Origin: Promethearchaeota archaeon
GTDB taxonomy: Archaea; Asgardarchaeota; Odinarchaeia; Odinarchaeales; JBHLKK01
Length of the DNA: 7,061 nucleotides
Assembly: GCA_048939465.1 (NCBI GenBank)
Contig: JBHLPL010000102.1
Span: 1 to 7,061, forward strand
Direction of reading: 5' to 3'
Each line of letters starts with the position of its first letter. The first letter of the stretch is position 1. Under the pieces are notes generated by a model, which made no database searches, had not been told where the DNA came from, and saw only the letters and a program-made list of their open reading frames with translations. This document shows positions 2,349-3,254 of this stretch, in pieces. The translations under genes were made by a program, and so were the position numbers.

Positions 2349-3254
2349 TCAGACTTGCTGGCTGAACAGCCGATGAAGGAGAATCTTTCCCTTGCCTAGG
2401 GTTCCACCATAATTTGTTGCGGTTATCTTCAATACTCCTGGGACTTTTGTGGCGCTTTCTATTCCAGCTTTCAGCGCATTCCGCACGTCTTTGATTCTCA
2501 ATCCGCTCACTATGACTTCATAGACGCATCTTACATCCTCGGAAATCTTATCCTCCCTGTTTTGTTGTAGAACCGGGCAGTATGCATCGTTTATAGTCGC
2601 TACCGCCTCCTTATAGGTACTCCCTCCGACTTTACTCCCGGAGGCTGCAAACTTGCCAACCACATATGGAATGGCCGCTACGCTTTTGAGTGCCCGTTCG
2701 GCAGATTCTAATGCAGCTTCATCCGAATTCGCCAAGATTAAGAACATACCACCAGTTACACCTTTCATTGTCCCAAATCTTCTCTCTACGTGAAACCATC
2801 CATCCATTCTAGGGATTTTTAGTACATCTCTCCCGAATTCCTGGGTCTCCTTTTCAAATCCATCTCCAAAGGTTTGTATTACTGTACCCCTAACATCTAT
2901 GAATCTTTCAGCCATTTCTCTCGGCAGAACGTCAAAAACGTTGGTTTTGGGATACGGGAGAACACCCTTCCTTATCCTAACAATGAGCCAGTGTTTCAGT
3001 TGTTCAAATCTTCTGTCGATAACTTGGATTGTGAAGCCTGGTCTTTTATCAGGAGTATTTTCCGGTTTAACCTCAGCTTCTAATGAAGCTTCTGAAGGAG
3101 GAATAGTAGCTGATCTGCCAAGCCCCTTGGCCTCTAAAGCAGCTTCTAGGGCCCATTTCCTATTTACAGATGTTATAAGTATCCTGGCTATGTGTGCGGT
3201 AAAAATCTCACAGAATGTATCCTCAACGTCAACTCCGTTAACCTTGAATTCCAC
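2349..3254 (-). CDS. ftr: Formylmethanofuran:tetrahydromethanopterin formyltransferase (Ftr) family protein, divergent paralogue, 301 aa
   Basis: Collinear with Ftr along its whole length: NGVDVEDTFCE (cf. NGVEIEDTFAE), ARILIT..N.KWA, TPDKRPG, FGDGFE, ASGSKVG, NDAYCP, RCVYEVIVSGL (conserved catalytic Glu, codon 2517-2519), NYGGTLG. GTG start at 3254 with GGAGA (3264-3268) 9 nt upstream; an in-frame TAA at 3276-3278 rules out a longer N-terminus. Family assignment is strong; substrate identity is uncertain. Confidence 0.92.
   Translation of the reverse strand: MEFKVNGVDVEDTFCEIFTAHIARILITSVNRKWALEAALEAKGLGRSATIPPSEASLEAEVKPENTPDKRPGFTIQVIDRRFEQLKHWLIVRIRKGVLPYPKTNVFDVLPREMAERFIDVRGTVIQTFGDGFEKETQEFGRDVLKIPRMDGWFHVERRFGTMKGVTGGMFLILANSDEAALESAERALKSVAAIPYVVGKFAASGSKVGGSTYKEAVATINDAYCPVLQQNREDKISEDVRCVYEVIVSGLRIKDVRNALKAGIESATKVPGVLKITATNYGGTLGKGKILLHRLFSQQV

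Follow-up and report, generated by a model that had tools for sequence, protein, structure and literature searches.

An Ftr-family paralogue in the histidine utilization locus of an Asgard archaeon: a candidate methanofuran-independent subfamily with a glutamate-type one-carbon donor

Why does a gene of the formyl-methanofuran (formyl-MFR):tetrahydromethanopterin (H4MPT) formyltransferase family, Ftr/FhcD, lie among the histidine utilization (hut) genes of an Asgard archaeon? The question is raised by a stretch of 7,061 nucleotides, hereafter the window, which is an entire contig (C36) of a 1.96-Mb metagenome-assembled genome (MAG) of Promethearchaeota with a completeness of 91%. Positions 2349–3254 of its minus strand encode an Ftr paralogue of 301 amino acids with a GTG start, whose signature type is here called 'Ftr-Glu'. 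The answer proposed, to which we give a probability of about 0.6, is that this gene is a member of a methanofuran-independent Ftr/FhcD subfamily that takes its one-carbon (C1) unit from formyl- or formiminoglutamate and hands it to H4MPT. Gene context gives separate pointers to a glutamate-type C1 donor: the linkage to hut genes, an M20 hydrolase in the same slot of related loci, N-formylglutamate deformylases as neighbours of bacterial relatives, and the lack of FhcC, and nearly always of MfnB, in the genomes of those relatives.

The membership of the protein in the Ftr family was evident from the Pfam families FTR and FTR_C, which matched it end to end (E = 2e-36 and 3e-41; profile positions 2–141 of 142 and 1–149 of 149), and it fell under both NCBIfam cut-offs for Ftr/FhcD (264.4 against 292.6 for TIGR03119 and 282.3 against 297 for NF002554). 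A preliminary description of this DNA had held that the catalytic Glu motif and the serine loop are intact and that four normally conserved segments deviate from canonical Ftr. The alignment to Methanopyrus kandleri Ftr bore out the first statement, as E246 (codon 2517–2519, minus strand) aligns with the catalytic Glu245 of that enzyme (the sequence of 1FTR and 2FHJ), a Glu invariant in all groups compared, and the SGSKVG loop is retained. The four substituted segments were likewise found exactly as claimed, and all coordinates were correct, including those of Y197–S205 (2640–2666) and of K43, R47, R95, K96 and K201.

All four canonical motifs, TGF(A/G)TS.I.C, R.GQC.LT.PTT, GGNF and PFPGG, are thus replaced on the minus strand of the window. 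The loop A42–S57 (AKGLGRSATIPPSEAS, 3084–3131), with K43 at 3126–3128 and R47 at 3114–3116, takes the place of canonical TGF(A/G)TS.I.C..EAG, and the segment R93–T104 (RIRKGVLPYPKT, 2943–2978), carrying R95, K96, Y101 and K103, that of canonical R.GQC.LT.PTT. GGNF has become GGMF (M170, 2742–2753), and the loop Y197–G210 (YVVGKFAASGSKVG, 2625–2666), with K201 at 2652–2654, is a shortened form of canonical PFPGGI..SGSKVG, in which the PFPGG part has lost roughly three residues.

The conservation of these changes was assessed in 117 archaeal, hut-linked homologues and 37 bacterial relatives, set against 19 diverse canonical Ftr representatives. The nearest homologues, 70–84% identical, belonged to Heimdall-, Hod-, Njord- and Hermodarchaeia, Atabeyarchaeia and Bathyarchaeia. 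R47, R95, K96 and K201 were present in 117/117 archaeal homologues and K43 in 114/117, and a sixth basic gain that the preliminary description had not listed, K103, was found in 115/117, whereas none of the 19 canonical representatives had any of the six basic residues. Position 170 was Met in 107/117 archaeal and 37/37 bacterial sequences and Asn in 18/19 canonical ones. When the 117 sequences were compared with the 19, 24 positions proved to be conserved within both groups yet different between them, six of them Lys or Arg gains and none an acidic gain; this substitution pattern is not due to chance.

K43, R47, R95, K96 and K201 also occurred together in all 37 bacterial relatives, whose clade, exemplified by the protein P0123, shared K43, G46, R47, T50, P52, P53, R95, K96, G97, P100, M170, K201 and T220 without exception. 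In the tree, the hut-linked proteins, the bacterial P0123-like group and one further protein, P0122, formed a single clade (SH-aLRT 100%) with a long stem and very short internal branches. P0122 (L016, 7001–7918), an intermediate member with 51% identity, has K43, R95 and K96 and lacks R47 and K201. Three sequences of a Bathyarchaeia subclade share the signature, but with R at position 201. Judged by these alignments, the basic residues are family-defining for this subfamily of Ftr paralogues. It had been proposed that their conservation would be confined to hut-linked Ftr, and this was only partly so: they are near-invariant there and absent from the canonical representatives, but the same residues occur in bacterial copies within mch-mtdB-fae operons. 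The case named at the time as telling against the idea, the same substitutions in canonical Ftr proteins of fwd/mch contexts, is formally touched by these copies, but they lie in genomes without FhcC, 15 of 16 of them also without MfnB, and without any other Ftr homologue, which speaks in favour of a non-MFR substrate.

The placement of the substituted residues was examined by structure prediction. The AlphaFold2 model of the Ftr paralogue (pLDDT, the predicted local confidence, 92) matched 1FTR with a TM score of 0.92 and a root-mean-square deviation of 1.8 Å, and a Foldseek search of the PDB returned Ftr/FhcD matches only. Ftr/FhcD enzymes form their active site at the homodimer interface (PMC6926001). 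A homodimer of the paralogue was predicted with a score of 0.90 against 0.00 for the best control, although this pass may partly reflect likeness to the solved Ftr dimers that exist; agreement between the three runs extended to at least 98% of the contacts, and the partner pLDDT was at least 91. Of 30 proteins solved as pairs of one chain, 20 attain the mark applied to this score, as does 1 of 23 proteins solved as single chains.

The predicted interface comprises 70 of the 301 residues of each chain, including 44–48, 51–53, 95–97, 99–104, 201–207 and 243–246. It thereby takes in parts of the loop A42–S57, with low pLDDT at 48–50, most of the segment R93–T104, in which P102 contacts Y245 of the partner chain, and the core of the loop Y197–G210, and within it E246 makes contact with M150 of the partner. 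Five of the six basic gains, R47, R95, K96, K103 and K201, share this predicted interface with E246, and K43 flanks it. The sites conserved in both groups yet different between them lay there more often than residues of the protein at large (13 of 24 sites, compared with 70 of the 301 residues; odds ratio 4.6, p = 6e-4); with the comparison restricted to positions conserved in canonical Ftr, the odds ratio was 2.8 (p = 0.03). Methanofuran is reportedly bound in a hydrophobic cleft at the Ftr homodimer interface. The suggestion that the basic residues lie at the donor site is favoured by the five that accompany the catalytic Glu, with the reservation that the interface itself is a prediction.

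The genomic context supplied an independent indication of a substrate. In Asgard and Bathyarchaeia contigs a module recurs in which the Ftr paralogue stands back-to-back with a gene of the glutamine synthetase (GS) family and a variant imidazolonepropionase gene, here HutI*, with HutU and/or HutH nearby, and the same module was found in 14 further species-level loci. In a divergent Bathyarchaeia subclade (L062–L064; 54% identity; R201, N170) the gene is instead divergent from hutU, and the GS-like–HutI* pair does not directly adjoin it. A MAG labelled as the bacterial family Krumholzibacteriaceae (L052) carries the archaeal-type Ftr and GS-like–HutI* module with 73% identity, which would be due either to horizontal transfer or to faulty binning.

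In a set of 400 Asgard genomes, HutU was above cut-off in 256 and the hut-type Ftr was present in only 11, spread over four families. In all 11 carrier genomes the hut-type GS was present and adjacent to the Ftr paralogue, and Mch was found in nine of them. FTCD_N was detected in none of the 11, HutG was not above cut-off in any, and FGase was not found in them save for one weak hit in G397; FolD was not found in 8/11. HutF, FTCD_C and FolD were not found in the genome of the window itself, which is 91% complete. In a genus that is sister to one of the carrier genera, FTCD was located directly downstream of hutU in 10/10 genomes and no hut-type GS was present. In family f11, which has neither Ftr nor Mch and, in the genomes in question, no FTCD, the slot of the Ftr paralogue is occupied by an M20 N-acyl-amino-acid amidohydrolase (TIGR01891, 341 bits; L018 6195–7505 and L019 5645–6832, both on the minus strand and divergent from GS-like–HutI*), and in other Asgard families an FGase-family or arginase-family gene lies beside hutU. 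The archaeal carriers do possess MfnB/Fwd-type genes, but in company with a separate, canonical Ftr copy in the genome. A distribution of this kind would be anticipated if the last hut step had undergone non-orthologous replacement, H4MPT being the likely acceptor. The absence of FolD was also considered as a means of discriminating between the two pterin carriers and was rejected, since the FTCD-bearing genera g26 and f13 are likewise without FolD yet possess Mch.

The bacterial P0123-like clade includes Gammaproteobacteria (Thiothrix, Thiolinea, Ectothiorhodospiraceae, Granulosicoccaceae), Planctomycetota and Acidobacteria, and its members score 242–266, under the NCBIfam Ftr cut-off of 292.6. 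In 17 gammaproteobacterial loci (L026, L029, L033–L044, L047, L056 and L067) the gene heads an operon composed of the Ftr-like gene, a GHMP gene similar to RFAP synthase, MtdB, Mch, a CitG-like gene and Fae. Sixteen bacterial carrier genomes, five of them complete chromosomes, were checked, and in all of them the signature-type gene was the sole Ftr-family gene, FhcC was above cut-off in 0/16 and MfnB was not found in 15/16. The occurrence of this Ftr type by itself, in genomes without FhcC and mostly without MfnB, argues for a substrate other than methanofuran. An N-formylglutamate deformylase (TIGR02017, 335 against a cut-off of 279) adjoins the gene in L017, L024/25, L026, L029, L033 and L037, so that a neighbour of this grade recurs in separate lineages. 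FGase was also considered as a universal partner of the bacterial genes and was rejected, being above cut-off in only 5/16 genomes. The gammaproteobacterial operon could constitute a furan-cofactor-independent route from formyl-H4MPT to formate.

In the archaeal loci, the two companions of the Ftr paralogue vary along with it. The HutI* proteins carry His to Gln in the GAH.IP motif, Glu to Trp in H.DE and SAA in place of NPN, changes common to 17/17 HutI paired with the hut-type GS, whereas the canonical residues are kept in 6/6 HutI of FTCD-type, arginase-type or other Asgard hut clusters (the window, L004, L007, L009, L018–L022 and L048–L061 were compared with L020 and L068–L074). These changes suggest a distinct reaction or intermediate after urocanase. 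The GS-like protein is 39% identical to the housekeeping GS encoded on contig C61 and differs from solved GS I-alpha enzymes by Asn to Tyr in NGSG and by GKSE in place of GQHE. Its gene always adjoins HutI* plus either the Ftr paralogue or the M20 hydrolase, and FTCD-type hut clusters do not contain it. The co-varying GS-like and HutI* proteins may hold the answer to whether the donor is formylated or formiminated.

Taken together, the archaeal and bacterial contexts, which are independent of each other, suggest N-formyl-L-glutamate as a shared substrate, with N-formimino-L-glutamate as an alternative in archaea. The C1-bearing hut intermediates are all N-acylated glutamate derivatives. In the mechanism envisaged, the homodimer and the catalytic Glu would have been kept, together with an extensive set of interface residues common to both types, as the H4MPT site and acyl-transfer machinery, and the segments conserved in the MFR enzyme would have been rebuilt as a basic patch from both subunits (K43, R47, R95, K96, K103 and K201) near Glu246. 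Within the predicted interface, this patch would bind the carboxylates of a small N-acylated glutamate. The paralogue would then perform the last C1-removing step of histidine catabolism, transferring the formyl or formimino group of N-formyl- or N-formimino-L-glutamate to N5 of H4MPT, so that glutamate would be released and the C1 unit passed to Mch and Mtd; in this capacity it would stand in for FTCD, HutG or FGase. N5-formyl-H4MPT is the native substrate of Mch and the product expected from an N-formyl donor. What the analysis shows is the sequence signature with its distribution, the gene contexts and the predicted fold and dimer; we infer the identity of the substrate, the sense in which the reaction runs and the contact of the basic residues with the substrate. 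A small dicarboxylate such as N-formylglutamate had been suggested as the donor in the preliminary description, and the gene context does favour a donor of the glutamate type, formylated or formiminated.

Several observations weigh against this reading. K43, R95 and K96 are shared with P0122, which lacks a hut context, and R95 also occurs in a third type of Ftr paralogue. In the bacterial loci, an alpha/beta hydrolase sometimes lies upstream instead of the deformylase and FGase is restricted to a minority of the carrier genomes, so glutamate may not be the universal carrier. The chemistry of the donor is also problematic in either form: N-formiminoglutamate (FIGLU) is the normal product of HutI, and as no HutF deiminase was found, an N-formyl donor requires an unexplained step, while a formimino donor requires a cyclodeaminase, none of which was found in the genome of the window. 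Moreover, the reading does not account for the co-varying GS-like and HutI* proteins, and, going by the predicted dimer, the basic residues could serve subunit packing rather than substrate contact.

The last of these points leads to the proposal that the basic residues are structural, serving contacts between subunits or within a tetramer, or the docking of the GS-like protein or HutI*, and do not determine specificity. The residues do lie in a very large predicted interface, and the dimer model places K103 in contact with L182 and A204 of the other chain, but the six positive gains are not balanced by any conserved acidic gain at the 24 sites, and bacterial relatives with neither a GS-like nor a HutI* neighbour have these residues without variation, which makes a purely structural role unlikely. 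The supposition that the protein is an ordinary formyl-MFR:H4MPT formyltransferase isoenzyme that happens to lie near hut genes, its substitutions being neutral drift or stability adaptation, appears more improbable still. It would account for the full-length FTR and FTR_C domains, the intact catalytic Glu and the presence of FwdC, Mch and Mtd in the genome, but a canonical Ftr copy is already there, the signature residues do not vary between phyla and are not seen in canonical enzymes, the hut synteny is kept across Asgard and Bathyarchaeia, and the bacteria that possess only this Ftr type are those without FhcC and, in 15/16 cases, without MfnB.

If a role in histidine catabolism is granted, the acceptor might instead be tetrahydrofolate (H4F), which would make the protein an FTCD analogue on the Ftr fold. 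The distribution complementary to FTCD_N agrees with this, as does the H4F-dependent scheme published for Asgard histidine breakdown (Imachi et al. 2020, PMC7015854). We regard H4F as a very unlikely acceptor, given that FolD and FTCD_C were not found in the genome of the window and FolD is missing from most carriers, that Mch is present in nine of the 11, that the gene was not found in Asgard families devoid of Ftr and Mch, where a hydrolase fills the slot, and that the bacterial relatives are located in H4MPT operons. It is also conceivable, though rather improbable, that glutamate is not involved, the partner being another anionic formyl carrier, or water in the case of a formyl-H4MPT hydrolase, with the hut linkage reflecting a different step. 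The scarcity of FGase among bacterial carriers and the alpha/beta hydrolase neighbours of some fit such an explanation, and since the canonical His and Glu are missing from HutI*, the hut intermediate may be neither FIGLU nor N-formylglutamate. Against it stand the restriction of C1-bearing hut intermediates to N-acylated glutamates, the deformylases of TIGR02017 grade beside the gene in separate lineages and the N-acyl-amino-acid amidohydrolase that family f11 has in this slot.

The glutamate-dependent reading can be extended to a more comprehensive one, which is tentative and for which we would give somewhat less than even odds. According to it, an Ftr subfamily of Archaea and Bacteria would have exchanged methanofuran for free glutamate as formyl carrier, a 'minimal methanofuran'. 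In Asgard archaea and Bathyarchaeia, the transfer from N-formylglutamate to H4MPT would salvage C2 of histidine together with the variant HutI and the GS-like enzyme, amounting to a new hut branch, and in Gammaproteobacteria and Planctomycetota the formyl group would move from formyl-H4MPT to glutamate, from which the deformylase would then free formate, allowing H4MPT-dependent formaldehyde oxidation with neither a furan cofactor nor Fhc.

The remaining features of the window complete the hut cluster. The C-terminal (3′) part of the urocanase gene hutU occupies 2–532 on the plus strand and its N-terminal part lies on contig C40 of the same genome (G000:C40:5806–6888), a split that represents an assembly break and not a pseudogene; it is followed by the histidine ammonia-lyase gene hutH (610–2148, plus strand). 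Beyond the Ftr paralogue, a divergent intergenic region (3255–3480, no strand) separates it from the hut-type GS-family gene (3481–4812, plus strand), the second GS paralogue of the genome, and this back-to-back layout is kept in the Asgard and Bathyarchaeia loci. HutI* follows at 4874–6148 on the plus strand, and the start of a secreted beta-propeller gene is also on the window. A promoter and terminator scan of the flanks gave nothing beyond shuffled sequences, the scan being of the sigma-70 type and unsuited to archaea. The DNA of the window has been recorded in mangrove and sediment metagenomes only, with no RNA sample listed among its sources.

The genome contains two more Ftr paralogues. 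The canonical one adjoins mtd and displays the motifs TIGFGTSLIMCPAEAA, RVSQCVLTCPTT, GGNF and PFPGG; FwdC, Mch and Mtd are all present, and MfnB (PF04476) was not found despite FwdC and the canonical Ftr, probably owing to an assembly gap in a genome of 91% completeness. The third type (L002 1495–2382; contig C2 of the genome) has SIPE for CVYE, TALPLT for TGFGTS and a shortened PFD loop; it adjoins a ModE/Mop-like regulator and, with numerous metagenomic sequences, makes up a well-supported clade of its own. As for P0122, no hut genes are found near its locus, and at a distance of 5 kb there are a GS of 482 amino acids and two AsnC regulators.

Histidine catabolism has been treated as ancestral for Asgard archaea, and its route was drawn via formyl-glutamate and H4F with no enzyme named for the step (Imachi et al. 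2020, PMC7015854). The literature search found no description of an Ftr-type enzyme in histidine degradation or of an N-formylglutamate:H4MPT transferase. If the reading favoured here is true, the missing last step of histidine catabolism would be filled in several Asgard and Bathyarchaeia lineages, and amino-acid fermentation would gain a direct link to the H4MPT branch of the Wood-Ljungdahl pathway. An explanation would also be at hand for the 'orphan fhcD' in bacteria with fae-mtdB-mch that lack both the Fhc complex and methylofuran. The signature KGLGRSAT.PP / R.RKG..P.P / V.K.AASGSKVG would separate the subfamily from true Ftr/FhcD, and as both types are now annotated identically, reconstructions that equate each Ftr hit with methanofuran-dependent C1 metabolism would need correcting.

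Among known systems, the closest is Ftr/FhcD itself (EC 2.3.1.101; PDB 1FTR, 2FHJ, 1M5S, 1M5H and 6S6Y_D), with which the paralogue shares the two-lobe fold (TM 0.92, VIA Z 37.7, 42–43% identity), the predicted homodimer, the catalytic Glu and the SGSKVG loop. Unlike Ftr/FhcD, it falls below the curated cut-offs, has four of the most conserved canonical motifs replaced, with six basic gains, and shows no fwd/fhc linkage. Glutamate formimidoyltransferase, the FT domain of FTCD (EC 2.1.2.5), is comparable in the predicted transfer of C1 from the last hut intermediate to a pterin carrier and in the genomic niche after HutI, and the two are mutually exclusive, as regards FTCD_N, in Asgard genomes; the paralogue differs in having no FTCD_N or FTCD domain match and in its likely acceptor, H4MPT and not folate. 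The FTCD FT domain was not among the 50 best matches of a wide VIA structural search, a cut below which a likeness of fold could still lie. The N-formylglutamate deformylase of the HutG amidohydrolase type (TIGR02017) and the M20 amidohydrolases act on the same presumed substrate class from a neighbouring or identical slot. Unlike these hydrolases, which free formate, the Ftr paralogue would keep the C1 unit on H4MPT.

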